Source: a virus
Direction: 5' to 3' (one strand)
Length of the DNA stretch: 64,000 nucleotides
IMG/VR virus record: IMGVR_UViG_3300005253_000070
The notes under the pieces were generated by a model. The model saw nothing but the letters and a program-made list of their open reading frames with translations, was not told the DNA's origin and ran no database searches. The translations under genes were made by a program, and so were the position numbers. Positions 28,557 through 58,602 of the stretch are shown in pieces; the first letter of the stretch is position 1; each line of letters opens with the position of its first letter.

Positions 28557-28562
28557 AGACCC

Positions 28563-28829: not shown

Positions 28830-28837
28830 TGATACCT

Positions 28838-41762: not shown

Positions 41763-43238
41763 CTAGGATCCAATCATCAGGATGCCGTCTGTTCCTGCAC
41801 GAAGACCGCCAGCGACGCAGAAGTTGCCACTTATTCCGGCGTCAATTGCATTCAAGTGAATGTTCGCAGGAGTGGCAGCTGCAGTGTCTGGCAGCTGATA
41901 CCAGGTACTTCCACCATCCAAAGACCGGAAGACGTATCCCATTGCACCGTCAGTTGCCGTCATGAACCCAAAAGGAGAATCCGGGTGATGTGAAAAGGCG
42001 ATTCCATGGACCTCTCCTTGCCCACTCAATCCGAATACTTTCTCCGTCCAAGTCACACCGCCATCTGTGGTGAAATACATGCGCCCACCAGCATCACCAA
42101 TCATCCAATAGAACCGAGTCCGCATCCAGATGGTATTGATGATCTGCACAGTCGGGCTCGTGATGGCCGCCCAGGTGGCACCACCATTGGACGAGAACAG
42201 AATCACACCGGCTGCGCCTACTGCAACGATGTTTCGACTATCTGACCCATGGACCGCAATCAGGTTCTGCGCCGTCAGGACCGCGTTGTGGATGACGGTG
42301 ACGCCGTCTGCTGGGTTGGCCATTGAGTAGATGATCCCACTATTACCAACAAGCCAGGACTGCGTTGAGCTGTGCGAGTGAATGTCATTCGGGCCACCAC
42401 CGGCAATGAAGCCAGCAGCCACTTCTTGCCACGTATCCAGATCATCAAGATCCACATAGTGGAGAGAGAGTGAATCAGCAGATGGAACAACGACATTGAC
42501 ACCACCGACAAGGGCCACTGCAGACGGGTCCTCATCAGCTGCCAACGTGTCGATGTCATACTGCTCACAGGTTAGTCCACCATCGAGAGACACGATCAGC
42601 TCGGCGGGCAAACCAGGAGATCCCGTAGTATACCCAACTGTCACGGCAAAGATGCGGTTCTCTCCTTCGCTTTCGTAGCCACATTCGCCGCAGGAGATGT
42701 AGTCATCAATGGTGACATCGACGACTTCCTTGTCGATCTGCGCTGCACACGTCTCAGCGAGGGCCATCTGGTCGATCTCCCACAGCATTCGAGCTGTGAT
42801 GTCGCCGGTCAAGAGGATTGTGGCCCTCCCGGCCTCGTCCAGTGCCGTTTGCTCATCACCCGATCGGTTGGTGAACCTTGCTTTCTCATAAGCAAGGATT
42901 TTTTCCCATCCCCCATTCTGGTCTTGGGGGTTTCCACACTTTCCATAATGCGCTTGGATGTGCATCGGGCAAACTGCAGAGAGGATGGGGTTGGTGAGGC
43001 CAAAGCGAGCAATCATGCTAGTCGTTGGCAACGAGCTCTCGCCGCTGACCACATCAATATCCTCAAATCGATCGTAGGCAAGTCGAGAGGGAATCTGCAC
43101 GCGGGACACTTCTCCCTCAGCCTTGGCAAACGAGCCAAGACGTGCCATTCCCTGGTAGACCATCGAGCTATTGGGGTTAGCCCCGCTAACTTGAAGGAAA
43201 ACCCGACCATGCCCCGTTTGGAATACTCTTTCAGACAT
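41763..43238 (-). CDS. major tail (tube) protein candidate with C-terminal BNR/Asp-box beta-propeller
   Basis: 491 aa with GGAGG RBS, in the position directly before the chaperones and TMP. Asp-boxes SSNGGATW, TTDGGVTW and SLDGGSTW, plus a degenerate SLDGGLTC. Confidence 0.55.
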   Translation of the reverse strand: MSERVFQTGHGRVFLQVSGANPNSSMVYQGMARLGSFAKAEGEVSRVQIPSRLAYDRFEDIDVVSGESSLPTTSMIARFGLTNPILSAVCPMHIQAHYGKCGNPQDQNGGWEKILAYEKARFTNRSGDEQTALDEAGRATILLTGDITARMLWEIDQMALAETCAAQIDKEVVDVTIDDYISCGECGYESEGENRIFAVTVGYTTGSPGLPAELIVSLDGGLTCEQYDIDTLAADEDPSAVALVGGVNVVVPSADSLSLHYVDLDDLDTWQEVAAGFIAGGGPNDIHSHSSTQSWLVGNSGIIYSMANPADGVTVIHNAVLTAQNLIAVHGSDSRNIVAVGAAGVILFSSNGGATWAAITSPTVQIINTIWMRTRFYWMIGDAGGRMYFTTDGGVTWTEKVFGLSGQGEVHGIAFSHHPDSPFGFMTATDGAMGYVFRSLDGGSTWYQLPDTAAATPANIHLNAIDAGISGNFCVAGGLRAGTDGILMIGS

Positions 43239-43267: not shown

Positions 43268-44458
43268 CTAGACTGTAATCCCCTCAAGTGATGCATAGAA
43301 GTTCGAGACAGTTTTCCATGCTTCCCAAGCGCCTCGTTGTGGTCCGAATGGGTTGGATGCCTGCTGAAACGTCATGCTGTCATCTTGCGGGATCTCTTGC
43401 CAGTACGAAAATATCTTGTTTATCGACTCTCCTCCTCCAGAAACTGGTCCCGTCAGCAAGGCCGTGGCAAAAGCCGCGACTGTTCGAGCGAAGGGAGACG
43501 ACATCCGCCCAAACTTATCTGAAGGCCACCCGGATAGGTAATAGAGTCGTACAAGTTGCGGTATCCGTGTCCAACTTTGTAGGAGATTCCATTCACTGTC
43601 CGTGTCATCCCACTTTGCTGGAACCAGCGATGCTATTCCTTTCTCTGGAAGCCATGGCTGTAGAAGGCCATATTGCTCACCAAAAGCAAGAGGTGCTAGC
43701 GCACTGTCTTGCCACCCGAAGACGATGGGAGCGAATTCGTTCGTATCGCTTCTTGAGTATACTCTGTAGACATCGACGTTGGCAAGGAAAGAAGCTGGAT
43801 CATTGCCATCTATAAACTTGCCCATCCCGTCCCACAGAGTGGGCTTGACAAACCACACCGATTGTCCCTCTATCGTAATGGTCGTTCCAGAAATCCACAC
43901 CTCTAGATTTCGGATACTCTCTTCGACGGTCGTGTCTGTCTCCCCTGCTGGATACACAGCAATCTCAGCAGGCAGCCACGACGAAGCATCGGCATGAATG
44001 ATCTCGAAGCGCATGATCTCGTTAAAGCCATCTCCGTCACGATCGATACTCGATCCGGAGATGTCCACGCCTGCTTCAATCAGGCTTACGAATCTTCGTC
44101 CACCCCCTATAAAGCGCGTGTGCTTCAGGTTCACAGTCTTCCTGTGTCGGGGATAGTTCATCTCCGGTGCGATTCTAGGCTGTGGATATATTTGGCGCTC
44201 ATCTGCCACATACTTTGGAGCTAGCCAGAATCCAGTATGCATAGACATCAGGTCTTCTGCCTTGGCTATAGCATCAGCTACCTGCTGCCTGCTTGCTTTG
44301 CCTGACTGCTGCCACCCATGCTGATACCACAAATCGTGAGTCCCTCGTTCCTCCGGGATCTGTGTTGTGATCACTTGATTGAAAAGTCGTGGATCGAATT
44401 GCATCTCCTCTGCCCACTGGTCCAAGCTGAGGAGTGTCGGAGTAGTCGCCTTTGCCAT
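43268..44458 (-). CDS. virion structural protein (head-tail joining region), function unknown
   Basis: 396 aa with AGGAGG RBS, between the glycan cassette and the tail gene. Confidence 0.5.
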   Translation of the reverse strand: MAKATTPTLLSLDQWAEEMQFDPRLFNQVITTQIPEERGTHDLWYQHGWQQSGKASRQQVADAIAKAEDLMSMHTGFWLAPKYVADERQIYPQPRIAPEMNYPRHRKTVNLKHTRFIGGGRRFVSLIEAGVDISGSSIDRDGDGFNEIMRFEIIHADASSWLPAEIAVYPAGETDTTVEESIRNLEVWISGTTITIEGQSVWFVKPTLWDGMGKFIDGNDPASFLANVDVYRVYSRSDTNEFAPIVFGWQDSALAPLAFGEQYGLLQPWLPEKGIASLVPAKWDDTDSEWNLLQSWTRIPQLVRLYYLSGWPSDKFGRMSSPFARTVAAFATALLTGPVSGGGESINKIFSYWQEIPQDDSMTFQQASNPFGPQRGAWEAWKTVSNFYASLEGITV

Positions 44459-44766: not shown

Positions 44767-47151
44767 TCAACCACGCCTCGCGGCTGGAGTCATATCAGAG
44801 TACCTCCCTCTTATCTCTAGGAGGAGAGCGTCTTTGTTTCTTAAACTCTCCTCTCTGCGTACTCCGGTATCGTATCGATATGCGAAGAGCGGAAGCGGAA
44901 CCCTTGCGCCTCCATAGCCGTTCATACCCAACTTGATTTCGTAGTCCCAGTCCTCCCACAGTGCCAGATTTTCGTCGAACCCACCGATGTCGAAGAACGC
45001 CTTTCTCGGGTGGAGAAAGGTGATTGCAAACAGGGCGTGCAACTTCAAACGGTCCAGATTCCATGGCTCAGCTCTATGGGCTTTCCCTTCTGGCAATGCA
45101 TACCAGTCGGAATAGAAAAACATGGCATCATCTGGGCATTCCTCAGCAGCCAAGAGGGTTTCGTGAACATATCCCCGCATCAAGTAGTCATCCGCGTCCA
45201 CGAAAGTGAGATACCTTCCTCGAGTATGCATCACGCCGATATTTCTTGCTGCAGAAACGTTTCCGATCTTTTGATTTCGTACCCACCGCACCCACGGGTA
45301 AGCATCTCTGTACGGAACAGAGCCGTAGTCCTCCAGGTCTCCTTCCTTCGTATCGTCCACAACGATGACTTCCCATCGATCATCGATCTGACCGGCAATG
45401 GACTCCAGGGCGTCTTGCAAGAGAGTCTTGTGTCCATCCCAAACAGGGATAACAAAACTGACTTCCGGCCTGTCGTAGTTGGGAACAGGGTGGGAAACTT
45501 TGTTATCTGGAGCTATTCGAGCAGCGAATGGAATTGGCCCACCGTTGGCAACGGGAAGCCATGCCAACCAGCGAGGTTCTTCCTTTTCTGCCCTTCTGAT
45601 TTGCGCCGTGGAGCTCATCTTATGAACACGATACTGATAGACAGCTTCCTCTGTGCAGCGTTCGACATCGTAGCCGATCAAAGGAATCCTCGTCCACAAT
45701 TCAGCATCTTCTGCAGGAGCAGCGTGCTGTCTAAACCCTCCTGCTCGCATAAATGCCCGTCTTCGCATCATATTGCACGATGGGACCTGGCATCTATTTT
45801 TCAGTTGTTGATCCATTCTAAACTTAGGGGGCCAGTCAGACTTTCTTCTGCTGACCTCTCCGGCCTCATTTATCGTAGCAAGTTTTCCATAAACCAAACC
45901 GAGAGTCGCCTTCTGAGTGATGCCCGTGAGAAGATCAACCAAGAAGTTTGGCAGCATCCTATCGTCTGCGTCAAGGAAAGAGAGGAACTCACCAGAGGAT
46001 GCCATGGCGCCGCTATTTCTAGCAGCAGCCACACCCTGATTCGGTTGGTCAATCACGGTGAATCTGCTATCTCCTCTAACAGCAGCACGAATCACCTGCA
46101 AGGAGTCATCCTTGGATCCATCGTTCACAACGATGCACTCCCAATTGTCATACGTTTGCGCCTTGACTGATTCAATGGCCTCCACCACGAAGGAGCTATA
46201 GTTGTAGCAAGGAATGATGACAGAGATATGACCTTCCCTATCTCTGGCGATATTCCTCAGGGCCAAATCATAGACGGAGCGATACCTGCCCATCGATTTC
46301 GCCCACGTATACTCCAACGCACGCTTCCTAGCTGCTCGGCTTAGTTCTTGGTGATTGTCCTGGATGTACTGAAGGCCTCTCAGTGTGTCTTCCATATTTC
46401 CAGGCTCAGCAACGTACCCCTCTTTCTTGTGCCGCACAAGAAATGGAAGATGCCCCCATCGCCAACCAAGTACAGGAAGACCAGCAGCCATTGCTTCTAG
46501 TATACCAATTCCAAACGTCTCCTTTGTTGGAGCAAAGTAGATGTTTGAGGAGTAGACGACCTTCTTCATTTCTTGGTAAGTCATAGAGCCAATGACGGAC
46601 ACATTTGTGGCACGCTCGCCGAATGTCGTGATGAACTGCGTACCCAATGCCGCTTGGGCTAGCTCGTCTAGGGACTCAGGGGAGCAAACACCAAAGGTCC
46701 TATTCTTGTTCCAAAGAACTACCGGTGAATCAAATGAGTATGGCTTTTCTGGCCATTCATCAAAGCCCAATCCGTGTGGCACCACCTCTGGCCAGAACCC
46801 CATATCTCTTGCAAATAGCTCAGCCACCCACGGACTTGGCACAGTGACGACTGATGCCTCCCGCGCCGAATCAATGACCAACTGGTTGATTCTCCACATC
46901 CAATTTTCCATCTCAGCAGGCTCGGCTGTTGGGTACAACCCATGGCAGTGAAGAACATCTATCTTGCGAGTTCGCATGTTATGTGAATGTATATGTCCCG
47001 CAAACAAGTCCGCGTTTTTCTCGCTTCCTACAAAAGAGATCCCATAGTCTGGGAGCATGTTGTGCATTCGTCGAATCACAATGTCAACACCGCTACGAAG
47101 TTTCTCCTCAGGCTTCGGGGGTGGAATAAGGTGTAGCTTTATTTCCTTCAT
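44767..47151 (-). CDS. three-domain glycosyltransferase (GT4-like GT-B + two GT2-like GT-A domains)
   Basis: 794 aa. The N-terminus has ETFGIGILEAMAAGLPVL (GT4 E-x7-E region). Then VIIPCYNYSSF...VVNDGSKDD...FLDADD, followed by FVIPVWDGHKT...VVDDTKEGD...FVDADD. Confidence 0.85.
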   Translation of the reverse strand: MKEIKLHLIPPPKPEEKLRSGVDIVIRRMHNMLPDYGISFVGSEKNADLFAGHIHSHNMRTRKIDVLHCHGLYPTAEPAEMENWMWRINQLVIDSAREASVVTVPSPWVAELFARDMGFWPEVVPHGLGFDEWPEKPYSFDSPVVLWNKNRTFGVCSPESLDELAQAALGTQFITTFGERATNVSVIGSMTYQEMKKVVYSSNIYFAPTKETFGIGILEAMAAGLPVLGWRWGHLPFLVRHKKEGYVAEPGNMEDTLRGLQYIQDNHQELSRAARKRALEYTWAKSMGRYRSVYDLALRNIARDREGHISVIIPCYNYSSFVVEAIESVKAQTYDNWECIVVNDGSKDDSLQVIRAAVRGDSRFTVIDQPNQGVAAARNSGAMASSGEFLSFLDADDRMLPNFLVDLLTGITQKATLGLVYGKLATINEAGEVSRRKSDWPPKFRMDQQLKNRCQVPSCNMMRRRAFMRAGGFRQHAAPAEDAELWTRIPLIGYDVERCTEEAVYQYRVHKMSSTAQIRRAEKEEPRWLAWLPVANGGPIPFAARIAPDNKVSHPVPNYDRPEVSFVIPVWDGHKTLLQDALESIAGQIDDRWEVIVVDDTKEGDLEDYGSVPYRDAYPWVRWVRNQKIGNVSAARNIGVMHTRGRYLTFVDADDYLMRGYVHETLLAAEECPDDAMFFYSDWYALPEGKAHRAEPWNLDRLKLHALFAITFLHPRKAFFDIGGFDENLALWEDWDYEIKLGMNGYGGARVPLPLFAYRYDTGVRREESLRNKDALLLEIRGRYSDMTPAARRG

Positions 47152-47660
47152 GCTTGCACACCCCCAACGTGAGGAGAAGGAACATCATTCAACAAGGCAA
47201 ATTCACCCCATGCCTCAAGAGCAGCAACGTTGTAGGCACAGCCGGCATCTGCTTCATTCACAAAGCGCCCAAGATTCCTGTAATGTCCCGATACAAGTAT
47301 TTGAGCACGCCATTTCTTCTTCGGTTTGTCCCAGTAGACACCCTTAAATCTGGAACTTCCCCTAGTCTTCTTTCGATTCGCGGCGTTTTGAGATCTCGTG
47401 CACACGCGAAGGTTCGCAATCCTACGATTATCGAGTGTGTCATGGTTTACATGGTCAACGAGCACCCCCTTGGGCGCTTTCATGATCTGCCTATGCATAT
47501 AGATTGTCCCTGGTCTCTCTCCTTTGACTCTGGGGACATTGCGCACCGCTTTTGGACCACCTTGCATTGTACACACATGCCACCTGTACTTCGATAGCTC
47601 CTCGTAGTCTTCGTCATCCACTTTTGTCGCATAGCCCCTAGTGAGCTTGATTATTCTCAT
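47148..47660 (-). CDS. HNH homing endonuclease with AP2 domain (copy 3)
   Basis: ATG at 47660 lies 1 nt after the upstream stop and is in frame with track ORF 47148..47699. Motifs MRIIKLTRGYATKVDDEDYEELSKYRWH, VDHVNHDTLDNRRIANLRVCTRSQN and SSRFKGVYWDKPKKKWRAQI. The stop overlaps the GT start. Confidence 0.85.
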   Translation of the reverse strand: MRIIKLTRGYATKVDDEDYEELSKYRWHVCTMQGGPKAVRNVPRVKGERPGTIYMHRQIMKAPKGVLVDHVNHDTLDNRRIANLRVCTRSQNAANRKKTRGSSRFKGVYWDKPKKKWRAQILVSGHYRNLGRFVNEADAGCAYNVAALEAWGEFALLNDVPSPHVGGVQA

Positions 47661-47661
47661 G

Positions 47662-48444
47662 CTACAGCTTCTTGATCTCTGCCAGAATGCGAGCAGCAAC
47701 CTGTGCAGGAGTCCATATTCCTGGGGTGTTAAGGATCGTCATGCAGCGTTCTCTTCCTTGAGGAGATTCGTATGGATAACCCTCCCTCGGAGATAGGTTT
47801 CGATCGAGATAGATCCACCAAGGACGGGTGGGAGCCATTGCATCCTCAACGGAATTTCTGATAGACTCCGTAGGGGCTATTACAGACACAACAACGTTTC
47901 TGTATTTAACTAATTGCTTGGCCAGCCGTGCCACTCGAATGTTATGGGCAAGTCTCTCTTCGATCGAGAAACCAGCTCCTAGAGAGATCGAAGCTCTCAT
48001 CTCATCCCCATCCAGGTTCACAGCATTCAAGGGACCCAGGAGCTCGTTTGCTATCGTGGTCTTCCCAGCACCGGAGTTTCCCGTTATCCAATAAATGCGA
48101 TGTCCCCCGTCTTCTCGTATCGCCGTTCCGCTCACGTTGGACGCTCTTGGCGCGCTCACTTTTCGAACTTCCCATCCTGGAGTCCTTCCGTAGACGACCT
48201 CAACGATGTTTGGCACATTGATGATTATCATGCGCCCTTCTGCAATCTCCTCCTTGTAGAAGGCCTCGAAGGCTACCGTTCTTTGCGCTTGAGTGAAGGG
48301 GTTGCTGTCTGTTCCATCCTCTTTTCTTAGGGCGATGACAACGCGCCGTCCCTCACTGAGAACCTTGTCTATCAACGCGAAGTGCCCCCTGTGTGGCATC
48401 GGCACCTGAAAGCGTCCCAGAATCAAGCTATACTCTTTGGACAT
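47662..48444 (-). CDS. NMNAT/cytidylyltransferase-like nucleotidyltransferase fused to adenylylsulfate (APS) kinase
   Basis: ATG at 48444 follows AGGAGG. N-terminal domain has GRFQVPMPHRGH and VSGTAIR. C-terminal domain has WITGNSGAGKTTIA, LDGDEMR, GFSIEERLAHNIRVARLA and VSVIAPT, collinear with CysC. Confidence 0.75.
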   Translation of the reverse strand: MSKEYSLILGRFQVPMPHRGHFALIDKVLSEGRRVVIALRKEDGTDSNPFTQAQRTVAFEAFYKEEIAEGRMIIINVPNIVEVVYGRTPGWEVRKVSAPRASNVSGTAIREDGGHRIYWITGNSGAGKTTIANELLGPLNAVNLDGDEMRASISLGAGFSIEERLAHNIRVARLAKQLVKYRNVVVSVIAPTESIRNSVEDAMAPTRPWWIYLDRNLSPREGYPYESPQGRERCMTILNTPGIWTPAQVAARILAEIKKL

Positions 48445-48495
48445 ATTGACCCTCCTGAAGGTCCACCAGTTGCTTTGAATCCATTCCGTCATCCT

Positions 48496-49080: not shown

Positions 49081-50046
49081 CTACAAACTTTCCTGAAGTA
49101 CGTTATCCTCAATCCACCTATAGGTAACTGAGAGTCCTGCCTCTAAGGGAATGCTAGGAGCCCACTTTAGGATTTCGTTGATTCTATCGTTGTTCGAATT
49201 TCGACCACGAACACCCTGTGGACCATCGATATGCTTCTTTTGTATCCTCACACCTGCAATCTCTGCGATGATGTCGGCAAGCTCATTGATAGAGACTAGC
49301 CTGTCACTGCCCAAATTGAGAGGATACGGGTAGTCCGAGCGCATAAGCCTAAGAATCCCCTCGATGCAATCATCTACCAGCATAAATGATCGCGTTTGCT
49401 CTCCATCACCCCAGATCTCTATCCTCGGTTCCCAGGAGGTTCTTTTTCCTTCAGCAATCTTTCTGCAAAGAGCAGCAGGAACCTTCTCTGCATTATCATT
49501 CCAAGATCCCTTCGGCCCATAGACATTATGAAACCGAGCAATCCGCGTAGTCATCCCATAGTCTTCTGCATAGGAAAGGCAGAGTTGCTCCATACACAGC
49601 TTCTCTAGGCCATAGGTATCCTGAGGATCGGCAGGGTAAGCATCATCCTCTTTTAGTCCTAGAATGTCTGTCCGTTCCTGCTTGAAATTTGGGTAGACAC
49701 AGGCGGAGGAACTGTAGAAGAAGCGACCTACTCCGCCTGTCCTTGCAGCCTCAAGAATATGTGTGTCTATAAGTAGGTTGTCATGCAGAATGGATGCGCT
49801 GTGAGAGGAGATGAAGCCCATACCTCCCATAGAAGCCGCCAAGTGGTATACCTCATCTATTCCATCCACAGCGATATAGCACGTGGCTCTGTCTCGCAGA
49901 TCACCAAAGAAGAAATCGTCGCATGGAATAGGGCCATACCGTGGTTTAGCAATGTCTGCTCCACGTACCCAATACCCTTCTTCCTTCAACCGCTTTGCCA
50001 AATGTCCGCCGATGAACCCTGACACACCTGTTACAAGTGCCTTCAT
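49081..50046 (-). CDS. NAD-dependent nucleotide-sugar epimerase, GDP-mannose 3,5-epimerase-like
   Basis: 321 aa with VTGVSGFIGGHL, SSSACVYP and YGLEKL (Y-x3-K). Long blocks (ASMGGMGFI, RFHNVYGP, WGDGEQTRSF) resemble GME as I remember it. Confidence 0.8.
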   Translation of the reverse strand: MKALVTGVSGFIGGHLAKRLKEEGYWVRGADIAKPRYGPIPCDDFFFGDLRDRATCYIAVDGIDEVYHLAASMGGMGFISSHSASILHDNLLIDTHILEAARTGGVGRFFYSSSACVYPNFKQERTDILGLKEDDAYPADPQDTYGLEKLCMEQLCLSYAEDYGMTTRIARFHNVYGPKGSWNDNAEKVPAALCRKIAEGKRTSWEPRIEIWGDGEQTRSFMLVDDCIEGILRLMRSDYPYPLNLGSDRLVSINELADIIAEIAGVRIQKKHIDGPQGVRGRNSNNDRINEILKWAPSIPLEAGLSVTYRWIEDNVLQESL

Positions 50047-51365
50047 CTTTGCTCCGATACACCAATGTAGCGCATCTTGATCTTCTTGGAGTTCTGTATT
50101 TTGCCCCTGAGAATTCTCCAGCAGTCAACAACTGTTCCCTGCTTCTGCCTCTGCTCGAAATCAGACTGAGAAATCTGGGCAAACTGCTCTGTGCGATTTG
50201 CGATGATTATGACGTCTGCCTTTTTCAAACAAGCCCCTAGAGACCAAGGCTCAATGAATTCTGGAAGAGACATCTGCCTCATCCTCTCGTCATATCCTAC
50301 AACTCTTACATCCTTAGCTGCCATCCTTCTAGCTAGTTCTATGGAAGGCGATCCAATCATACATGGAGTTCCCGATTTGTATGACAACCCTAGAATGGCA
50401 ACAGTACCTTTTTCACTGAGACATCCGGTAGCAATATCAACAAGTCTTCTCCACCTAGCCTTATTGGATCTGCTTACAGCCCATGGAAAGTTGCCTGGGA
50501 TACAAAGATCTTCTACAATCTCTTCAAAGGCCCTCACATCTCGAGGAAAGCAGGTTCCCCCATACGGCATTCCCGCTATGAAGTATTTCTTTCCGACCCT
50601 AGAGTCAGATCCAACAGCAGCGGAGACCAAGTCGATATCACCACCAGGGAAGCGCTCACAAATGTCCCCAAGAAGATTTGCGAATGCTATCTTCGAAGAA
50701 ACAAACATGTTGATCCCCATCTTGACAATCTCTGCATTAGTGAGTGACATCTGGTGAATCTGATGTGGTTCTACCAGCATTGTTGAGAGTATAAAGCCGA
50801 CCAAACCAACTCCAGCCTGCTGACCAGACTGTCCCACGATAACAAGGTTCGGGTTCAGGTAGTCTTCTATGACACTGCCTATGGCAACAAGCTCAGGATT
50901 GTATGCAAGTTCCCAGCTGTCACCACAGGCGTATCCCGACGCCTGTTCGATCGCCGGCTTGATCACTTCCTCCATCGTTCCTGGCATGAGCGTACTCATC
51001 ACGGAGATGATTCTACTGTCTCCATATGGCACTGTACCTCGGATGGCCTTTCCGATCCGCTTGCACACATCCAGCACATATTCATGAGAAAACTTCCCAT
51101 TTTTCAGGCTGGGTGTTGGTACCAGTACACCAATGACATCTGCACCATGCACACCTTGCTTCAGGTCAGTGGACGCGGAAAAGCTCCCCTTTACAGCGGA
51201 CATCATTTGCTTCATGTGGGGCTCATCCACAGGAGAAATCCCTGCGTTAATCTTATCCACAACCTTTCTGTTTTTGTCTATTCCAATGACATCATGGCCT
51301 CTACTGGCGATGGCAGCCGCTATCGGTGCCCCCAACTTTCCCAGCCCAACTATTGTGATGTTCAC
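50043..51365 (-). CDS. nucleotide-sugar 6-dehydrogenase (UDP-glucose/GDP-mannose dehydrogenase family)
   Basis: 440 aa. Has N-terminal IVGLGKLGAPIA and the catalytic-Cys motif GGTCFPRDV. Confidence 0.85.
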   Translation of the reverse strand: MNITIVGLGKLGAPIAAAIASRGHDVIGIDKNRKVVDKINAGISPVDEPHMKQMMSAVKGSFSASTDLKQGVHGADVIGVLVPTPSLKNGKFSHEYVLDVCKRIGKAIRGTVPYGDSRIISVMSTLMPGTMEEVIKPAIEQASGYACGDSWELAYNPELVAIGSVIEDYLNPNLVIVGQSGQQAGVGLVGFILSTMLVEPHQIHQMSLTNAEIVKMGINMFVSSKIAFANLLGDICERFPGGDIDLVSAAVGSDSRVGKKYFIAGMPYGGTCFPRDVRAFEEIVEDLCIPGNFPWAVSRSNKARWRRLVDIATGCLSEKGTVAILGLSYKSGTPCMIGSPSIELARRMAAKDVRVVGYDERMRQMSLPEFIEPWSLGACLKKADVIIIANRTEQFAQISQSDFEQRQKQGTVVDCWRILRGKIQNSKKIKMRYIGVSEQR

Positions 51366-51988
51366 CAGTTTTCCCTAATCCATATTGTCGTTTTCTTATC
51401 CCTCTTCCCATGCGTGAACCAGTTTCTTTGCACGAGAATCGGCTTGGTTGCTCCAAGAAACTTGCCTTTCACGCTTTTTGCTCTTTCTGCGCCTATTCGC
51501 TCCGCTGTCCATGGAGTAGCATGTCTTCGTAGCAACCGACGAAACACACCTGTTTGCCAAATGGTTCCCTTTTGTGAAAACAAAAACGGATTATCTTTGG
51601 CCATCCTAACGAAAAGAGCATCGCGTTTGTACGGCGTCCCCTTCGTTGTGAATCTCTTCGACAGCCTAACCATGCAGACTGAGGAATCTTCAGTTAGGGC
51701 AGCTAGCGCCCGAGCAATCCTTCGCGGATAAATCTCTACGGGGATGAGATCATCTAGGCAGAGCATCATTAGCTCGTCATGCATGTGATGGCGAAGGAAC
51801 AAATGCAGATTGTCCGCAAAGCCAAGATCTTTTCCCAGCTTGATGACCGTTGCATCAACGTCTATGTTCTCTTCGTTTGTGATGACAATCACGTCGTAGG
51901 GACACTGTGGCCAAAGTTTCCGAAGAAAATGAATGTGTGCCGGGATAGTATGGGCATACTTGTCACAAGTGGGAATGACAATCTTCAC
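51362..51988 (-). CDS. hypothetical protein, tandem paralog A (possible GT-A-like, CLDDL)
   Basis: 208 aa. Starts MKIVIPTCDKYAHTIPAHIHFLRKLWPQCPYDV, near-identical at the N-terminus to the upstream gene. Confidence 0.5.
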   Translation of the reverse strand: MKIVIPTCDKYAHTIPAHIHFLRKLWPQCPYDVIVITNEENIDVDATVIKLGKDLGFADNLHLFLRHHMHDELMMLCLDDLIPVEIYPRRIARALAALTEDSSVCMVRLSKRFTTKGTPYKRDALFVRMAKDNPFLFSQKGTIWQTGVFRRLLRRHATPWTAERIGAERAKSVKGKFLGATKPILVQRNWFTHGKRDKKTTIWIRENW

Positions 51989-52644
51989 CAGTGACGCTCA
52001 ATCCACCTGGTTACGAACTTGTCCTTTCGTCCCCGATGGGAGATCCAATTCATCTGCTCCAGGGTAGCGTGGGTAGCCCCAAGGTTCATCCCTCCTCTAC
52101 TTCTTAGCCTGGCAGTGCCATTTCCTTCTGTGCGTGTTGATGTCTCTCCTCCCTCAAGAATCGATTGATGAACTGACGATCTCCACAGGGTGGCCTTGTT
52201 TGAGTACGTATACCTATCTCTGCGCATATGCACGTAGATATTGTCAGGCCCATAGCGATCGTGTGGCTTTTCTAGTGGTCGCTTGACCCAACGCTCCGCC
52301 AGCCGAATCTGATTGACGACACGATCTGCAGAGACTACTGTTACTGCCTCCTCGATGAGAACGCCATCAATATGAAACGGGACCAAGTCATCCATGCACA
52401 AGATGAAAAATTGATCATCTTGAAGGAACCTTTTATGCGTCTCAAGAAAGTTGCTGGCCCACAGCCTATCTTGACCAAGGTGCTCTATCCTAGCATTGAT
52501 TTCCTTGGCATGAGGAACGGGAGCAGATCCTCCAACGACCACCAGCACCTCGTATGGGCAGGAAGGCCACAGCTTGTGGAGGAAGTGAACATGTGCGTGA
52601 ATCGTATGCACATACTTGTCGCAGGTGGGGATGACAATCTTCAT
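51985..52644 (-). CDS. hypothetical protein, tandem paralog B (CMDDL)
   Basis: 219 aa. Starts MKIVIPTCDKYVHTIHAHVHFLHKLWPSCPYEV. Confidence 0.5.
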   Translation of the reverse strand: MKIVIPTCDKYVHTIHAHVHFLHKLWPSCPYEVLVVVGGSAPVPHAKEINARIEHLGQDRLWASNFLETHKRFLQDDQFFILCMDDLVPFHIDGVLIEEAVTVVSADRVVNQIRLAERWVKRPLEKPHDRYGPDNIYVHMRRDRYTYSNKATLWRSSVHQSILEGGETSTRTEGNGTARLRSRGGMNLGATHATLEQMNWISHRGRKDKFVTRWIERHW

Positions 52645-53393
52645 TTGTACCCCCAGCGAGCCATGTATTTTTTGCAGCTTCTTTCAATCATCCTCACCTG
52701 AGTGTGATTCAGCCAGGTTTTCCAGTGGCCAGAAGTTCCGAACACGACAGCAGGAAGAGAAGGGAGCACCGGGTGCTCTCTGGGGGGATTCTCCCCTGCC
52801 TTCTCCAGCTTCCTTCTCTTTTTCCAGTACTCATCTTTTGCCTTCTGCTGATCTGGCAACCTGAATGGGTTGGTAAGTGTCCTTGCCTCTTTTAGGGAGA
52901 TGGCGATGCCCAAGAAAGTGGCGATCCGCAATGCCTCTGCAGATAGATCCTCAATCATCACCTCAAACTTTGAGACGTGGATCATGTTTCTTGGAATTTT
53001 ATCTACCCACATGTCAAACCAGCCAAGCCACATGGGAAGCTTTTCATTTATCACTGTCTTCCCAGAAAACTCACCGATCTTCCCAGAGCGTCTTGCTCGC
53101 TCCTGCATGGAGACGAAGATGTCTCTAGGATCTCGAACAGTTCCTACCACCCGAATGCGCCCCTCCTTTAAGAACCGCGCAGCTGTCTCTGACTCGTCTG
53201 GTAGATACCGAAAGACTTTGCAGATGACGAGCTCGTCTTCGTCCTTGTCGTGCTCCACCAGCCTACTCTCCTTGTGATAGCCTATCCCCCTTCCCCTGTT
53301 TGCGTGTTCAACTATGGCAGCCGCTATTCTATTCTGCGTTGTTGATCCTGTACGATACGTCCCTGTGACGAATACCCATATAGGTGCACTCAT
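52641..53393 (-). CDS. PAPS-dependent sulfotransferase
   Basis: 250 aa with AGGAGG RBS. Has a 5'-PSB-like TGTYRTGSTT, a 3'-PB-like VRDPRDIFVS and a C-terminal GTSGHWKTWL. Confidence 0.7.
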   Translation of the reverse strand: MSAPIWVFVTGTYRTGSTTQNRIAAAIVEHANRGRGIGYHKESRLVEHDKDEDELVICKVFRYLPDESETAARFLKEGRIRVVGTVRDPRDIFVSMQERARRSGKIGEFSGKTVINEKLPMWLGWFDMWVDKIPRNMIHVSKFEVMIEDLSAEALRIATFLGIAISLKEARTLTNPFRLPDQQKAKDEYWKKRRKLEKAGENPPREHPVLPSLPAVVFGTSGHWKTWLNHTQVRMIERSCKKYMARWGYK

Positions 53394-53417: not shown

Positions 53418-54329
53418 CTACCTGCTCCCAATTAGGATGTTGGAATCAAAGTCGATTCTCTTTACAGCCTGTTTTCCACCGAAGGATGTCACAGCGGCAA
53501 GGAGATCGTAGCTGTCTTCCAAGTTTCCCTCCTTTGGTGGTATAGGCTTTCCGCTCATTCGTATGAGCAGTCGCGTCGCTCCGAACCAGTCTCTGTCCTC
53601 GACCACAGTGCGAACGACCTCTGCCGGGCATTCATTCAACGCGTTTGTTGAAATAAACAACTCAGGATTTCCCAGTGCTTCGTTGCTCATTCTTAGGACG
53701 AGGGATGAGGGGATGATATTTATCTTCCCTTTCTCTGCTTCCTTCCCCTCCACAGTGATCAGGTTGACCGCATCCTCCCCAAAGAGGACGGATAGGTACA
53801 ACCACTGAAGCACACAAACCGGAGGAAAGTCAGCAATCGTATAGGTTAGCGAATCGTGTCCCATCCGCTTGTAGATCTTTGGTTGGCCACCATAGCCAGA
53901 GCCCCAGTCAAGGATTGATTTTGTCTGTCTTATTGGCACCCCCGTTTCCTTTGCAGCCACATACGCGTAGAACAAGAACTTGGTGACATCCCAGTTCACC
54001 GTCTTTCCTAGAAGGTTGGTTTGGGGAACGCCACCAAACTGATCTACAACCAGGGCAGCCTTGGTCAACCGCTGATCAAAGTTGTCCTCCAACCACGTCT
54101 TCACCAGATTGTACTTCGCAGGGTTGGTTCCCATTCTGCCCCGAAGACCAGGCTTTCCCATGAAATCAAAGTCAGGATGTGGTAGGAGAAGTTTTTCCGC
54201 CCTCCACGCACCACTCACCCAAAAATCCGACAGCTGCTCTTCTTTAGCAAACTGACGGATGTTCTCATACCTCTGTTGCACTTGCTCTCGTAGTCTCAAA
54301 TACCTATCGTGTTGCGTTTCCTCCAACAT
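53418..54329 (-). CDS. putative SAM-dependent (sugar O-) methyltransferase
   Basis: 303 aa with AGGAGGG RBS. Contains ILDWGSGYGG...YTIADFPPV, resembling a Rossmann SAM-binding motif. Confidence 0.45.
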   Translation of the reverse strand: MLEETQHDRYLRLREQVQQRYENIRQFAKEEQLSDFWVSGAWRAEKLLLPHPDFDFMGKPGLRGRMGTNPAKYNLVKTWLEDNFDQRLTKAALVVDQFGGVPQTNLLGKTVNWDVTKFLFYAYVAAKETGVPIRQTKSILDWGSGYGGQPKIYKRMGHDSLTYTIADFPPVCVLQWLYLSVLFGEDAVNLITVEGKEAEKGKINIIPSSLVLRMSNEALGNPELFISTNALNECPAEVVRTVVEDRDWFGATRLLIRMSGKPIPPKEGNLEDSYDLLAAVTSFGGKQAVKRIDFDSNILIGSR

Positions 54330-54453: not shown

Positions 54454-55887
54454 TTACCACTCCTTGTAGTAGCTTGGCGGCGTCGGGTAGTACTCGTCTC
54501 CACCCTTCTCGAAGTACGGGCTGGATGGGAAGGGCTCACGCAGATGCTGGAGCGGCTCGTACATGATGTTCTCGAGACGACCGGCTAGTTGGGGAGTCCT
54601 GAGCACCACTCGGGGCTCAATTTTCCCCTGGAACTTGAAACAGTAATTCAAGTTCTGCATGCTCCACATGTATCGGCCCCCATCGGTAACCCAAAACTGT
54701 CCCTTGTTCCGTAGCACAGCCAGATCGCCCTGAGCCTGTGAGTAGTCCAGATACTCCCAGTACAACGTCCTCATCCCCTTCGCCCGAAGCGGAAGGATGT
54801 AGATGTCGCTGGCAAACTGACCAGGGATCAGGTTTGCATTGGTCGCGTTATTGTCTTCGAAAATACCGTCATCAGTGATGACCGGAACCTGGAGACCGTT
54901 GATCCAGAGGTACTTTCCCCTCCGCATTTCGTCTCTCATGTTCACATTCGTCGCATCATTCATGATCACGACATTCGTACCCGCAGAGTTTGCACATCGA
55001 TCGGTGAGATACTGGCAGGGCCATACGGCGCTCAGCTCGAAGAAAAGCTGCGGTCGCATAGCAATGACCCAGTCCACAGGATCGAGGCTCATGCGCTCGG
55101 CGTTGTGGGTCAGATACTGCATCATCATCGAGAGATACTGAACGATGCTAGGAGAGGCTCCATCGATGCTGTTGAATCCAAAGTCTTTGATGTCTGAATC
55201 CAAAGCAGGGCAAGGAGACTGGCTGAGTGCGTCAACCTTTCCAGTCGAGACCAGGATCTCAAGTCCAGGAAACTCCGCATATCCGCCGTTGGTGTTGTTC
55301 ACAGGGTTGCCCTGGAAAAGCATCCTCGTAAGCCACCGCTGAAACTCAATGCCGATGATGACGAGCTGCGACTGAACAACAGAGTTCAGCCATCCGCCCT
55401 TGGGAACACCTTCCTGAGTCAACAGCTGATGACCCTCACCAATGACATCACCTAGAAGGCGAAGATCTGTGGTGAGTTTGTTATTCAACACCTGCATTAG
55501 CGTGTTGACTTCCATCTCTTTCGAGCTTCGTGCCACACGGCCAAAGGCAGCAGTCTGATGACAGACCTCGAGAACACCACCAGGGGCGTCATCACAGGGG
55601 CCATCCGGCTCAGCCGATCCATCCCCCTCAAAGCCGGTGAGGAAGGGGTAGATTGGGTTCAGGTAGACTGTTGGGATTGCCGGAATCATACCCGACATGC
55701 CCCGAGGAGAAATAGACGCATTGATAACCGTGTCTTCAAGACCAAAGTTGCTGAAGAAGCCCTTTGGTCCGAAGACGAGCTGTGCATTAGGAACACCGGA
55801 GATCGCCTTTTGCTGGATTTGATTACCAGCGAGGAGGGCGAGAGTCTTGTTGATGCCCTCCAAAATTGCAACTGTTTGCCTATCCAC
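54454..55887 (-). CDS. major capsid protein candidate (by position and size)
   Basis: GTG at 55887 lies 7 nt after GGAGGG. The track ORF extends to 55902 without an RBS. About 477 aa, directly after the protease/scaffold gene. No motif verified. Confidence 0.55.
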   Translation of the reverse strand: MDRQTVAILEGINKTLALLAGNQIQQKAISGVPNAQLVFGPKGFFSNFGLEDTVINASISPRGMSGMIPAIPTVYLNPIYPFLTGFEGDGSAEPDGPCDDAPGGVLEVCHQTAAFGRVARSSKEMEVNTLMQVLNNKLTTDLRLLGDVIGEGHQLLTQEGVPKGGWLNSVVQSQLVIIGIEFQRWLTRMLFQGNPVNNTNGGYAEFPGLEILVSTGKVDALSQSPCPALDSDIKDFGFNSIDGASPSIVQYLSMMMQYLTHNAERMSLDPVDWVIAMRPQLFFELSAVWPCQYLTDRCANSAGTNVVIMNDATNVNMRDEMRRGKYLWINGLQVPVITDDGIFEDNNATNANLIPGQFASDIYILPLRAKGMRTLYWEYLDYSQAQGDLAVLRNKGQFWVTDGGRYMWSMQNLNYCFKFQGKIEPRVVLRTPQLAGRLENIMYEPLQHLREPFPSSPYFEKGGDEYYPTPPSYYKEW

Positions 55888-57895
55888 TTTTGTTCCCTCC
55901 ACCGAGGAATGTGTCCATTAGGGCATCGCCCATGTCCTGGACAACACCTGCCCCGACGCTTTCTTGGTCGGCCTTTTCCTTCGCCGCTACAGTAGCATTA
56001 GGATCAACGGTTTTTGGATCGGTCGACGGACGAGTAAGCGATGCGCGAGTCGATTGATTCCGTCGCAGCGCCTGTACCTCAAATGAGACGGAGGCGAGTT
56101 GGTCAGACATCTCTTTCACCAAGCCGGCTAGAGCTTCCTGCCCTTCGTCAGCAGTGAAATTCGGTGGATCGGAGGCGACTTCTTTGGCCTTTTTCTTGGC
56201 CTTGCCGTCCTTACCATCCTCGTCGTCTTCGTCTTCCTCTTCATCTTCCTGTTTCTTCTTCTTGGCCTTCTCAGCCAAGGAGAGGAAGGCTACCTTGAGT
56301 TCACAGTCTGGCAGGTCACCCATCGCCTTTATGAACAAGTCATTTGGGTCAGGTTCCTGGGTGTCTTCCTTCTCCTCCTGGTCGGGAATGTGTGACACGA
56401 AGACAGCAGCACTCTTGAGTATCTGCTTGTGATCTTCGTTTTCCTCCGCGTCGACCATCATCAAGAGCTCTTTCACCAGGTTATCTCGTGAGATCTCCTC
56501 GTCCTTGAAGATGGCATCCGGCTCGACTGACTTAGCATTGATTCCATCCGCCTGAGAGACTGCTTTCGTGGCCAGTTCATCGCCGAGCAGCTCTCGGAGA
56601 ATGGCAATCTTGTGTTGCAACATTTCTGGTTCTCCTTCAGTAGTGATCCGAGAGAAGACATTCGCAGACTGCTGGACAGGAAGTAATGATCTCTCTAGGA
56701 TCGCAATGCTGTGATAAACGTTATTGACTCTTTTTCCTCGCACATCGACGTTGCGTTCCTTATCTGTTGGGTCAGAAAGGAATGCAATGCTGATCGCCCA
56801 TCTTTCAGGGTGCCTCGATGTTTCTTTCCTGGCCTGCTGGCTAACTGCATCGTTGTACCACAGGCCGGATTCTATCAGACACAACCCATCGTGCATCGCA
56901 AAGTCGCAGTTGCCGAAGTCGACACCCCTCACGTGCCAAAAACGCAGTGGACCACGGTCTTTGACCACACTGTCTGCAGACCTCTCCAATGCCTTGGAGG
57001 ATACGATGTCAAACTCACGGTCCATGAAAGCAGTGGACGAAATCGATACCCAACGATATTGTCCATCATGCTGCTTTGTGGTGAAGAACACGTTCTGCCC
57101 CTTGGTGATCGCAGGCTCTGGTGCTAACTCCTTCGTCAGCATCTGCCCCAACGAGGACCACACCTGGGAGAACTTATCCTTCCAACTCTTCGGCTTTGCT
57201 CGCGTTCCCATGAGAGGTGCTCCACAATCGGGGCAGACCTTGTCTACACAAGCTGCACCCTTCGAGTGGTCTCCGGAGTAGCCGCACTCCTTGCAAACAC
57301 AGGTGCCTACTCCATCCTCTAGGACCGCTTTCTCTTGCCCTCCTGATTTTATATCCAACAGAGCAGGGGCTGGAAGAACACTGGTCCCGTCTGATTTCCG
57401 CGTCTCCTCGGTCACCGACGCTCCCTCTTCCTGCTCAGAAAGAACTTTGTCCACAGACAGGTTTACTTGCCTGTGCGAATGCTCCATGCCCCATCCCTTG
57501 TGTGTTTTCCCCGCAAGGTAGGTTGCAATCTTGTCCCACGTTTCCGGAGTTATCTCTGCTACCTCGTCAAGCCATACCAAAGGAGATCCTAAGGCATTCT
57601 CCTTTTTCACAGGCCATGACACCACACCAACTCGCGGAAGCTGCAGGTGATGCTGCACGGAACCGTCTTTGGGGATAGCACCCGTGTTCATCCCAAGTCG
57701 CCATGCGAGATCCGCGACCAGTTGAACAAGGAGGTCCTTCTGCCTACGCTCCTCAGAAGACTCAATCGCACCTATTTGCGCCACTGCGGCCTCCCTACTA
57801 TCGTGACATCCCATTGACTTCCCTGCGGCTGTTCCGTCTGGGGACTTCTTGAACACACAATGCTGTCCGCCTTGCATAACGATGGTGTATGGCAT
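55880..57895 (-). CDS. prohead protease / scaffold fusion candidate with internal zinc ribbon
   Basis: 671 aa. The central region (RFWHVRG...ISIAF...ILERSLLPVQQSAN) resembles HK97-type prohead proteases. Also has CKECG...CPDCG, the acidic run QEDEEEDEDDEDGKDGK and a helical C-terminus. Confidence 0.5.
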   Translation of the reverse strand: MPYTIVMQGGQHCVFKKSPDGTAAGKSMGCHDSREAAVAQIGAIESSEERRQKDLLVQLVADLAWRLGMNTGAIPKDGSVQHHLQLPRVGVVSWPVKKENALGSPLVWLDEVAEITPETWDKIATYLAGKTHKGWGMEHSHRQVNLSVDKVLSEQEEGASVTEETRKSDGTSVLPAPALLDIKSGGQEKAVLEDGVGTCVCKECGYSGDHSKGAACVDKVCPDCGAPLMGTRAKPKSWKDKFSQVWSSLGQMLTKELAPEPAITKGQNVFFTTKQHDGQYRWVSISSTAFMDREFDIVSSKALERSADSVVKDRGPLRFWHVRGVDFGNCDFAMHDGLCLIESGLWYNDAVSQQARKETSRHPERWAISIAFLSDPTDKERNVDVRGKRVNNVYHSIAILERSLLPVQQSANVFSRITTEGEPEMLQHKIAILRELLGDELATKAVSQADGINAKSVEPDAIFKDEEISRDNLVKELLMMVDAEENEDHKQILKSAAVFVSHIPDQEEKEDTQEPDPNDLFIKAMGDLPDCELKVAFLSLAEKAKKKKQEDEEEDEDDEDGKDGKAKKKAKEVASDPPNFTADEGQEALAGLVKEMSDQLASVSFEVQALRRNQSTRASLTRPSTDPKTVDPNATVAAKEKADQESVGAGVVQDMGDALMDTFLGGGNKSG

Positions 57896-58602
57896 TATGT
57901 CGTTACTATCGCAACGGTCGGCTTCGGTCCAGCTCCGCCTTTAGCGATCGCGGCCTGAAGAACAGGCCCGATTTCTCTTGCCATTTTCTTCTGCATTTCA
58001 AGAGCGATAGAGGCAGAGAATCCACGAGGCTCAACACCAGGATGCTTGACCCTCTCGTACTTCTTTACGTAGTTCCCTGTCCTGTCCCGCTTTCGTGTAT
58101 TCAATCCGGGGAAAGACATGAGGAAGCTAGGAGCCGTTTTCGGCGCATAGGGATTGGACCAGAAGAGAAATCCTCCCTCTTCCTTCGGGCCAATCCAGTG
58201 TTCCCCAGTGCCATAGTCGATCAGTGTGTATAAGGCAGCAAGATCCATTTCTTTCGAGCCACCAGGGCTGGGCTGAGTTGGACTTAGACCGGCCAAAACA
58301 AGCATGTCACCAGAAGCAAGAAAGCTTTGCTTGATGACCTTGAATCTTGGATGCCTTTTCCACGAAAGAACCGTCTGCCTATACAAATCGGATCCCGAGG
58401 ATCCCACTCTCCCTAGCCAGTTAAGAATTTCCAGGCGAACATCTTGAAGCGTCCACAAATCAGGAAAGACAGGGAGAAGACCATACAGCTCGCCACCGGG
58501 TGTTACTGAGCCAGCAGCAAATGCTGTTGATCGAAAATGCGGGTCTGCTCCGCGAACCGATCCTGTATCCTGGCTAGCCAAGGTGGTACCTCTGCATAAC
58601 AA
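57895..58602 (-). CDS. hypothetical head-module protein (start uncertain)
   Basis: 235-aa track ORF with a TTG start that overlaps the portal 3' end by 29 nt. No motif recognised. Confidence 0.45.
   Translation of the reverse strand: MLCRGTTLASQDTGSVRGADPHFRSTAFAAGSVTPGGELYGLLPVFPDLWTLQDVRLEILNWLGRVGSSGSDLYRQTVLSWKRHPRFKVIKQSFLASGDMLVLAGLSPTQPSPGGSKEMDLAALYTLIDYGTGEHWIGPKEEGGFLFWSNPYAPKTAPSFLMSFPGLNTRKRDRTGNYVKKYERVKHPGVEPRGFSASIALEMQKKMAREIGPVLQAAIAKGGAGPKPTVAIVTT

Follow-up and report, generated by a model that had tools for sequence, protein, structure and literature searches.

The 64,000-nt stretch of viral DNA from the IMG/VR record IMGVR_UViG_3300005253_000070 (this whole stretch is referred to as the window) carries, at positions 47662 to 48444 of its minus strand, a complete gene for a protein of 260 aa, in which an N-terminal mini nucleotidyltransferase (NT) domain is fused to a C-terminal domain of the adenosine 5'-phosphosulfate (APS) kinase family (KIN). 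The extent of the gene, which ends with a stop codon at 47662–47664, was derived from the list of open reading frames (ORFs), a public gene call, and 97 aligned full-length homologues. The mechanically determined ORF is longer and reaches to 48492 (276 aa); the ATG at 48442–48444 is favoured as the start codon because a Shine-Dalgarno motif read from the sequence (AGGAGG, 48451–48456, minus strand) lies 6 nt upstream of it, because the homologues begin at this position, and because the public gene call also comprises 260 aa. On the basis of the Shine-Dalgarno motif and the homologues, a chance ORF or a wrongly assigned start was rejected. An initial annotation of the locus had quoted several peptides without naming a strand. 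All of them are present in the translation of the minus-strand ORF, namely GRFQVPMPHRGH (residues 10–21), VSGTAIR (104–110), WITGNSGAGKTTIA (119–132), LDGDEMR (144–150), GFSIEERLAHNIRVARLA (158–175), and VSVIAPT (186–192), and its assignment of the two domains, an HxGH nucleotidyltransferase resembling nicotinamide mononucleotide (NMN) adenylyltransferase (NMNAT) and an APS-kinase-family domain, proved to be right. The PHROGs labels of the protein are "kinase" and "cytidyltransferase." The top match in a sequence search of PDB was 2gks, the bifunctional ATP sulfurylase (Sat)/APS kinase of Aquifex (E = 9e-12), followed by stand-alone APS kinases. Judged by sequence comparison, the similarity of the fusion protein to known families is far above chance.

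The NT domain comprises residues 5–113 (48106–48432; here and below, coordinates refer to the minus strand unless stated otherwise), as delimited by a comparison of the family profile with PDB, by an NT hidden Markov model (HMM; E = 7e-34), and by the AlphaFold2 (AF2) model. It contains the HxGH motif (H18-R-G-H21, 48382–48393), with H18, G20, and H21 invariant in alignments of 97 and of 29 sequences, as well as the ISxT or SGTxIR motif (S105-G-T-A-I-R110, 48115–48132), which aligns with SGTEIR of the archaeal NMNAT MJ0541 and in which S105 and R110 are invariant and T107 is conserved in at least 90% of the sequences. These two motifs on a Rossmann-like core place the domain in the HxGH superfamily. 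Altogether, G10, R11, H18, G20, H21, R40, P49, R55, G86, R87, G90, S105, and R110 are invariant in the 97 full-length homologues and in the alignments of the N-terminal domain, and Q13, N48, and T107 are nearly invariant. The phage subclade of the window has a 2-residue insert before HxGH and reads GRFQ-VPMP-HRGH versus the usual GRWQPFHxGH.

In the comparison with PDB, the NT profile matched MJ0541 (1f9a; E = 1.3e-14) and the enzyme of Methanothermobacter thermautotrophicus (E about 1e-12). Matches to PPAT, TagD, and NadR were marginal, and the match to NadR covered only the first ~50–70 residues of the profile. The single sequence is weakly NMNAT-like (NCBIfam PRK01153, E = 2.5e-7; 1f9a, E = 0.0015) and has a weak match to Pfam CTP_transf_like (PF01467) at residues 9–62; the curated thresholds were not reached for PRK01153 (30.5 vs. 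127), TIGR01527 (18.9 vs. 181.2), or PF01467 (18.2 vs. 21). A single-query search with NT alone against a set of 5.8 billion proteins, with a word filter too coarse for this domain, yielded one match.

The NT profile aligns with residues 3–75 and 109–132 of MJ0541, and its positions 73–82 span residues 75–109. About 25 residues of NMNAT (MJ0541 76–108) are absent from the NT domain, and the kinase starts only 6 residues past SGTAIR, so that the C-terminal helical subdomain of NMNAT is missing as well. The retained motifs, GRxQ, HxGH, NPFTxxER, and SGTxIR, supply the Arg and His residues with which NMNAT binds ATP and performs catalysis; the deleted segment presumably holds the nicotinamide contacts, including the Trp that stacks on nicotinamide. 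With this segment and the C-terminal subdomain lost, a small acceptor is a more likely substrate than NMN. Two invariant elements are specific to the family, i.e., Arg40 (48325–48327; GSAQ in NMNAT), which is invariant in three alignments, and Arg87 (48184–48186) of the Y/I-G-R motif (YSGN in NMNAT), in which G86 and R87 are invariant. These new elements are positively charged, and R40 and R87 are candidates for holding a small anionic acceptor. Judged from the alignments, the NT domain is a derivative of an archaeal-type NMNAT.

The kinase domain (residues 116–260, 47665–48099) was assigned via Pfam PF01583, APS kinases in PDB, and Foldseek, and represents a short-lid subtype. The match to Pfam APS_kinase (PF01583) covers residues 117–215 (E = 1.6e-15, 57.9 bits vs. 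a gathering cut-off of 21.1). The domain has a Walker A P-loop (G122-NSGAGKT-T130, 48055–48081), in which G122, G127, and K128 are invariant, and the motif L144-DGDEMR150 (47995–48015). GNSGAGKTT, LDGDEMR, GFS, EER, and HNIR align residue by residue with 2gks, 2yvu, and 7yq0 and are invariant in the 97 homologues, and LDGDEMR, together with G158-F159-S, R164, and N168, matches the APS- and Mg-binding motifs of APS kinases; the roles of the Arg/Phe/Arg/Asn set and of the LDGD residues are those seen in published APS kinase structures. The mobile lid (CxxRDxKGLY...FTG) is about 25 residues shorter than in the canonical kinases P0167 and P0172, and only its PYExP end is kept. Thus, the collinearity with CysC that had been ascribed to the whole C-terminal part holds for residues 117–215 (positions 4–109 of the 152 of the Pfam profile) and breaks down in the last third, which contains the lid.

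The AF2 models are of high confidence, with a predicted local distance difference test value (pLDDT) of 87.5 for the whole protein and of 80 for the NT domain. A Foldseek search with the whole model returned 2gks as the best match, along with 1m8p and 3cr8, followed by APS kinases. The TM-scores of about 0.48 for 2gks, 1m8p, and 1i2d fit a superposition mainly of the kinase domain.

The window belongs to a phage, with genes for a primase and a family-A DNA polymerase on the plus strand and for a minor tail protein and the large terminase subunit on the minus strand. The NT-KIN gene is part of a minus-strand late operon with the gene order NanM-like protein (303 aa), sulfotransferase, two paralogous hypothetical proteins, UDP-glucose dehydrogenase, epimerase, a hypothetical protein of 189 aa, NT-KIN, HNH-AP2 protein, and glycosyltransferase. 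The sulfotransferase gene (52641–53393, 250 aa; Pfam Sulfotransfer_1, E = 4.5e-11, 43.1 bits vs. a cut-off of 22) lies 4 kb upstream of NT-KIN in the same orientation; sugar-nucleotide and glycosyltransferase genes separate the two. Its product is the presumed consumer of 3'-phosphoadenosine 5'-phosphosulfate (PAPS); the translation contains a TGTYRTGSTT loop and an RDPRD..VS motif, which we read as the 5'-phosphosulfate- and 3'-phosphate-binding motifs of PAPS-dependent enzymes. The operon further encodes a UDP-glucose/GDP-mannose dehydrogenase (50043–51365; N-terminal, central, and C-terminal domains of Pfam UDPG_MGDP_dh), an NAD-dependent sugar epimerase/dehydratase (49081–50046; Pfam Epimerase, E = 1.8e-49), a triple glycosyltransferase of 794 aa (44767–47151; one GT1 and two GT2 domains according to Pfam), and the 303-aa protein (53418–54329), which is weakly similar to sugar O-methyltransferases (NCBIfam TIGR04371, E = 9e-8, below the cut-off). 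Two relatives, one 82% (locus L089) and one 48% (L090) identical, have similar operons, each with a sulfotransferase. No ORF of the 64-kb window matched the HMMs of the sulfurylase subunits CysD and CysN or contained the Sat motif Q[TS]RNPxHxxH; on these grounds, the option that a canonical sulfurylase is encoded at another site of the window was rejected.

The pairing of the two domains is recurrent in public sequences, where it occurs as NT-KIN fusion, as KIN-NT fusion, and as split adjacent genes. A search with the full-length protein found 822 proteins; the following figures rest on the 120 matches listed. Nearly all of them have 241–274 aa, most contain both PF01467 and PF01583, and the domain order is reversed (KIN-NT) in 18 of the 120. 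Proteins of this kind are named "adenylyl-sulfate kinase," "cytidyltransferase-like protein," or "kinase" in the databases. The module was found in bacteria of the candidate phyla radiation (CPR), in DPANN archaea, in marine metagenomes, and in phages; one carrier is the 1.21-Mb Saccharibacteria contig CAYYWQ010000001.1. Among the species genomes of GTDB, apart from a small number of other metagenome-assembled genomes, it is almost confined to Patescibacteria and DPANN archaea. A phage database contained no close relative of the window's protein and two kinase-only matches with about 32% identity. The 89 loci that were fetched with kinase-derived patterns include 39 NT-KIN fusions, three KIN-NT fusions, and 14 kinases without NT; they also contain 34 stand-alone NT ORFs, almost all of which belong to split, overlapping NT and KIN pairs, mostly from Peribacteria.

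A HMMER search with the NT profile retrieved 880 cluster representatives at E ≤ 1e-10. Among the best 145 of these 880, 61 are stand-alone NT proteins and about 57 are fused, in either order, to an APS-kinase-family domain. In some cases the partner is a full-length canonical APS kinase, e.g., in P0167, the kinase of which passes the NCBIfam apsK cut-off (145.8 > 138.7). Other fusions, among those of the 145 that were scanned with Pfam, involve methyltransferases or a weakly matching DHH/DHHA1 domain: in P0127 (432 aa) and in P0142 and P0161 (295 and 329 aa), NT is joined to a DHH/DHHA1 phosphoesterase-like region (weak Pfam match) and to class I methyltransferases. We take the DHH/DHHA1 region to belong to the same family as the NrnA-type phosphatases of 3'-phosphoadenosine 5'-phosphate. 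These fusions hint that NT is connected more broadly with pathways of sulfation and glycan decoration.

The pairing was also assessed in a kinase-blind sample, for which metagenome contigs were retrieved with a degenerate DNA pattern for GRWQPFHxGH. This yielded 120 loci, 112 of them with an NT-family ORF. NT was fused to an APS-kinase-family ORF in 17 of these loci, had one within 1 kb in 73, and lacked a kinase in 6; the remaining 16 lie at contig ends and are uninformative. Altogether, 90 of the 96 informative NT loci (94%) have an APS-kinase-family ORF fused to NT or within 1 kb.

A divergent subgroup has a 135-aa kinase with the motif LNADEVR..DWDFS.EGR and is abundant in marine metagenomes. 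The marine variant (contigs L118–L236, e.g., L236 3203–3984 and L167 5806–7341) consists of an NT gene of 124–135 aa and a 135-aa mini kinase (LNADEVR, DWDFSEEGR) and is the smallest form of the pair; some of the contigs are 190–530 kb long. The metagenomic locus L167 is a sulfotransferase-KIN-NT operon. The subgroup is also represented in cultured phages, i.e., the Xylella phages Sano, Salvo, and Bacata, the Stenotrophomonas phages DLP_6, Bhz60, and Suzuki, the Xanthomonas phages Seregon and AhaSv, and Clavibacter phage 33. In these phages it takes the form of a KIN-NT fusion, which is annotated as "kinase," "hypothetical protein," or "Adenylylsulfate kinase" and lies in early or nucleotide-metabolism regions. 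In Sano (gp35, YP_009639091.1; NC_042344.1, 15406–16143; L237/L239) it is an early-region gene whose neighbours encode MazG, a "cysteine dioxygenase," and a topoisomerase, and in DLP_6 it is AAY80_227 (L238).

To characterize the genomic context, sulfotransferase genes around the module were counted as a function of distance. Their density is 2.79 per 10 kb within 0.5 kb of the module, and it drops to 0.30 at 0.5–2.5 kb, 0.15 at 2.5–5 kb, and 0.05 at 5–10 kb, which corresponds to an approximately 50-fold enrichment next to the module. A sulfotransferase lies within 10 kb in 28 of 72 NT loci and within 500 bp in 17, often with overlapping stop and start codons. These loci span Saccharibacteria, Peribacteria, Paceibacterota, DPANN archaea, and phages; the Sulfotransfer_2 group is present in Peribacteria. 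Further recurrent neighbours are glycosyltransferases (GT2, GT1/GT4), epimerases, and ABC transporters. On one CPR contig (L005, 7391–9984), the NT-KIN gene directly follows two fragments of a pyridoxal-dependent decarboxylase and an Aminotran_1_2 (AONS-like) gene. A link to a sulfonolipid or taurine-type pathway is conceivable, but this is a single case.

The kinase-only loci revealed what can take the place of NT. Locus L040 has the gene order CysD-CysN-KIN-sulfotransferase. In four further kinase-only loci CysN is fused to KIN, with CysD preceding the fusion in three of them (L053, L069, and L088) and the fourth (L080) being cut at the contig end; the proteins of L040 and L053, four altogether, all pass a curated NCBIfam cut-off. 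Two more kinase-only loci have a CysQ/HisN-like phosphatase followed by KIN, with a sulfotransferase adjoining or near the kinase. The kinases linked to CysDN have their closest relatives among the NT-linked ones, with 54–63% identity. CysD/CysN occurs in none of 75 NT loci, as opposed to 5 of 14 loci without NT. Likewise, none of 24 IMG/VR loci contains CysD/CysN, and 20 of them contain NT and KIN; the motif Q[TS]RNPxHxxH is absent from all fetched loci, including these 24 contigs. Such mutual exclusion of NT and CysDN beside near-orthologous kinases is what one would expect of an NT domain that carries out the reaction of CysDN.

Taken together, the results suggest, with a probability that we estimate at roughly 60%, that the NT domain adenylylates sulfate and that the kinase converts the resulting APS to PAPS. 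For the 110-aa NT domain this activity is deduced from the gene context. NT would bind ATP and use sulfate as the acceptor to form APS and pyrophosphate, with the retained motifs GRxQ, HxGH, NPFTxxxR, and SGTxIR as the machinery and with the segment distinguishing NMNAT lost. The fused short-lid kinase, which belongs to the APS kinase family and is near-orthologous to CysC domains, would then phosphorylate the 3'-OH of APS and thereby draw the unfavourable first reaction forward; fusion or tight gene pairing would serve this coupling. Finally, the sulfotransferase encoded at 52641–53393 would use PAPS on a glycan that the UDP-glucose dehydrogenase, the epimerase, the 794-aa glycosyltransferase, and the methyltransferase-like proteins would assemble while the late phage genes are expressed. 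As a whole, the protein would be a compact, self-sufficient PAPS synthase that feeds the phage's own sulfotransferase. Since the glycan and sulfation operon is embedded in the late module, virion proteins are a possible target of glycosylation and sulfation. In a broader formulation, to which we give odds slightly better than even, NT constitutes a third class of ATP sulfurylase with an evolutionary origin of its own, as a re-tooled derivative of NMNAT. Together with the mini APS kinase it would form the smallest known PAPS module, with a wide distribution across CPR bacteria, DPANN archaea, marine microbes, and their phages, which would use it for the sulfation of surface or virion glycans. 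The guess of a self-contained PAPS synthase in the initial annotation thus receives strong independent support from the sulfotransferase in the operon, the recurrent pairing, the enrichment of sulfotransferases, and the replacement of CysDN by NT, and we regard it as partly supported overall.

Several observations weigh against this interpretation. The initial annotation had linked NT to ATP sulfurylases through their common superfamily; the HxGH assignment stands, but similarity to ATP sulfurylase itself is undetectable, with no ATP sulfurylase among the PDB matches of the NT profile at E ≤ 1, and the sulfate/ATP motif QxRNPxHxxH of Sat is absent from the domain. In Foldseek searches the isolated NT model gave weak matches to PPAT, NadM, and NadR (E ≥ 3.6e-3), a result that does not discriminate between substrates. 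The kinase misses the equivalog cut-off of NCBIfam apsK (TIGR00455; 57.2 bits vs. 138.7) and lacks the canonical mobile lid over APS. In many CPR loci the module is surrounded by housekeeping genes and has no sulfotransferase gene up to 10 kb away, and no sulfotransferase was detected in 50 of the 56 kb of phage Sano. The sulfotransferase counts rest partly on self-built, iterated HMMs; when 10 of the ORFs were compared with Pfam, 8 were confirmed. Lastly, the absence of a canonical sulfurylase holds within the window and the fetched flanks, and the host could supply APS.

The last point leads to an alternative that we consider unlikely, namely that the kinase alone participates in sulfate activation by converting host APS to PAPS, and that NT is a regulatory or nucleotide-binding module or else adenylylates or cytidylylates another acceptor in glycan decoration. 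A precedent for regulation is found in fungal ATP sulfurylase, the APS-kinase-like domain of which is allosteric. The assignment of the kinase is indeed much firmer than any assignment of NT, and each partner is found without the other: the kinase occurs alone beside a sulfotransferase in some loci and phages (L042, L047, and L087), and NT is occasionally fused to methyltransferases or DHH/DHHA1 instead of the kinase. However, such separations contrast with the 94% of NT genes that have an APS-kinase-family gene beside them in the kinase-blind sample. Moreover, the invariant catalytic residues of HxGH and SGTxIR argue for catalysis and not for regulation, and the mutual exclusion of NT and CysD/CysN is predicted by a functional replacement, not by an accessory role.

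It is rather improbable that the module makes a different 3'-phosphorylated nucleotide conjugate, in which case NT would couple a different phospho-acceptor to AMP or CMP, after which the kinase would phosphorylate the 3'-OH. Analogous pairs are PPAT and dephospho-CoA kinase in CoA synthase, as well as the Campylobacter route to 3'-phospho-CDP-amidate via Cj1416/Cj1415. The isolated NT model fits PPAT about as well as NMNAT, the truncated lid of the kinase could admit a larger group, and the housekeeping contexts in CPR bacteria would suit cofactor salvage. However, the kinase retains the R/F/R/N motif lining the phosphosulfate pocket and is 54–63% identical to kinases that are fused to or follow bona fide CysD/CysN, and the enriched neighbours are sulfotransferases, not CoA or phosphoramidate genes. 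The sulfotransferase in the operon of the window carries both PAPS-binding motifs, and the Pfam scans of the operon proteins revealed no glutamine-kinase-type or amidotransferase domain. With respect to the Campylobacter O-methyl phosphoramidate (MeOPN) pathway (Cj1415–Cj1418), neither a glutamine kinase nor a gamma-glutamyl-CDP-amidate hydrolase domain was found among the operon proteins scanned, which include a sulfotransferase instead.

A miniature NadR-like enzyme of NAD salvage, a common auxiliary function of phages, that combines ribosylnicotinamide kinase and NMN adenylyltransferase would fit the proximity of NT to archaeal NMNAT and NadM in sequence, the presence of NadR and viral NadR-like proteins among the structural matches, and the early-region placement in Sano- and DLP_6-type phages, which resembles that of nucleotide-metabolism modules, but it is highly improbable in view of a kinase that matches APS kinases and has no NadR match over residues 116–260 at E ≤ 1 in the PDB search, the missing NMNAT segment 76–108 and C-terminal subdomain, a score of 30.5 versus the curated NMNAT cut-off of 127, and a neighbourhood of sulfation and glycan synthesis genes.

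If the NT-KIN protein is a PAPS synthase, it would work like the known bifunctional ones, yet it lies outside the Sat and CysDN families and fails the curated thresholds for both NMNAT and apsK. With the Sat-CysC fusions (Aquifex 2gks; animal PAPSS1/2) it shares the combination of a domain of the nucleotidyltransferase superfamily and an APS-kinase-family domain on one chain, which occur in both orders in nature, and the association with sulfotransferases; in addition, 2gks is the best match of the whole protein in both sequence and fold. The candidate sulfurylase part, however, has about 110 aa compared with about 350–400 aa in Sat, and the total length is 260 aa compared with 550–620 aa; it belongs to the NMNAT branch, has no detectable similarity to Sat and no QxRNPxHxxH, and the lid of the kinase is reduced by about 25 aa. 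The archaeal NMNATs (MJ0541/1f9a, the M. thermautotrophicus enzyme 1ej2, and NadM) have GRxQPFHxGH, NPFTxxER, SGTxIR, and the Rossmann-like core in common with NT; in contrast to them, NT lacks the ~25 residues and the C-terminal helical subdomain, has R40 and G86-R87, and almost always pairs with an APS-kinase-family gene. The sulfate-activating complex of CysD/CysN with CysC (CysNC, NodPQ) is found in the same genomic slot as NT: in Peribacteria and other CPR bacteria it precedes near-orthologous short-lid kinases or is fused to them, in the same context of sulfotransferases and CysQ-like phosphatases. CysD, however, belongs to the PP-loop ATP pyrophosphatases and relies on the GTPase CysN as its driver, whereas NT is unrelated to it and has no GTPase partner. 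The kinase domain resembles canonical CysC (PF01583/TIGR00455) in the P-loop, the LDGD and GFSxxxRxxN motifs, and the fold, and it differs in the deletion of the lid segment CxxRDxKGLY...FTG and in a score of about 57 bits versus the apsK cut-off of 138.7. NadR and the eukaryotic CoA synthase (PPAT and dephospho-CoA kinase) likewise fuse an HxGH adenylyltransferase to a P-loop kinase for consecutive steps, and there are weak fold matches; in NT-KIN, however, the kinase is of the APS kinase family, not a ribosylnicotinamide kinase or CoaE, and the neighbours are sulfation genes.

Literature searches retrieved no description of an NT-kinase fusion or of an NMNAT-like sulfurylase. To our knowledge, textbooks recognize only two types of ATP sulfurylase, Sat and CysDN, and CPR bacteria, DPANN archaea, and the other lineages that carry the module are generally thought to lack sulfate activation. 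The current database names lead to the scoring of the carrier genomes as unable to activate sulfate. A sulfurylase function of NT would be a clear example of non-orthologous displacement, in the reaction with which all sulfation and sulfate assimilation begin, and would change the annotation of sulfur metabolism. It would also imply that ultra-small CPR and DPANN cells, as well as phages, make sulfated glycans, and a single-chain PAPS generator of 260 aa could find use in enzymatic sulfation. For experiments, cultured phages of Xanthomonadaceae and Clavibacter offer ready handles.

Several further features of the window were recorded. Genes are on the plus strand from 1 to 28.5 kb and on the minus strand from 29.6 kb onwards; this strand switch coincides with an inflection of the GC skew at about 28500–29600. 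The replication module on the plus strand contains the genes for the primase (21343–23853) and PolA (23850–26225). No tRNA genes were found in the 64-kb window. The structural module spans 29613–64000 on the minus strand; most of its large proteins (e.g., 43268–44458, 54454–55902, 55880–57895, 58574–59923, and 61645–63987) have no Pfam or PHROG match, and only the large terminase subunit and one minor tail protein are recognizable.

Within the operon, a homing-endonuclease-like HNH-AP2 gene (47148–47660; Pfam HNH_3 and AP2; 170 aa in the public gene call), which is not a member of the pathway, begins 1–2 nt past the stop codon of NT-KIN and is wedged between it and the gene for the 794-aa glycosyltransferase. 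An HNH gene is present at the same position in the 82% identical relative, and thus the insertion is conserved in the phage lineage. The tandem paralogues between the genes for the sulfotransferase and the UDP-glucose dehydrogenase (51362–51988 and 51985–52644) encode proteins of 208 and 219 aa that both start with MKIVIPTCDKY.HTI.AH.HFL.KLWP and have no Pfam match; at the corresponding position of the same relative, one of two genes (233 aa) matches TOD1_MUCI70, a glycosyltransferase-like family. Directly downstream of the glycan operon, a gene at 41763–43238 encodes a BNR/Asp-box repeat protein of 491 aa (a sialidase-like beta-propeller). Both L089 and L091 have it too, and it may act in receptor binding by attaching to glycans or cleaving them.

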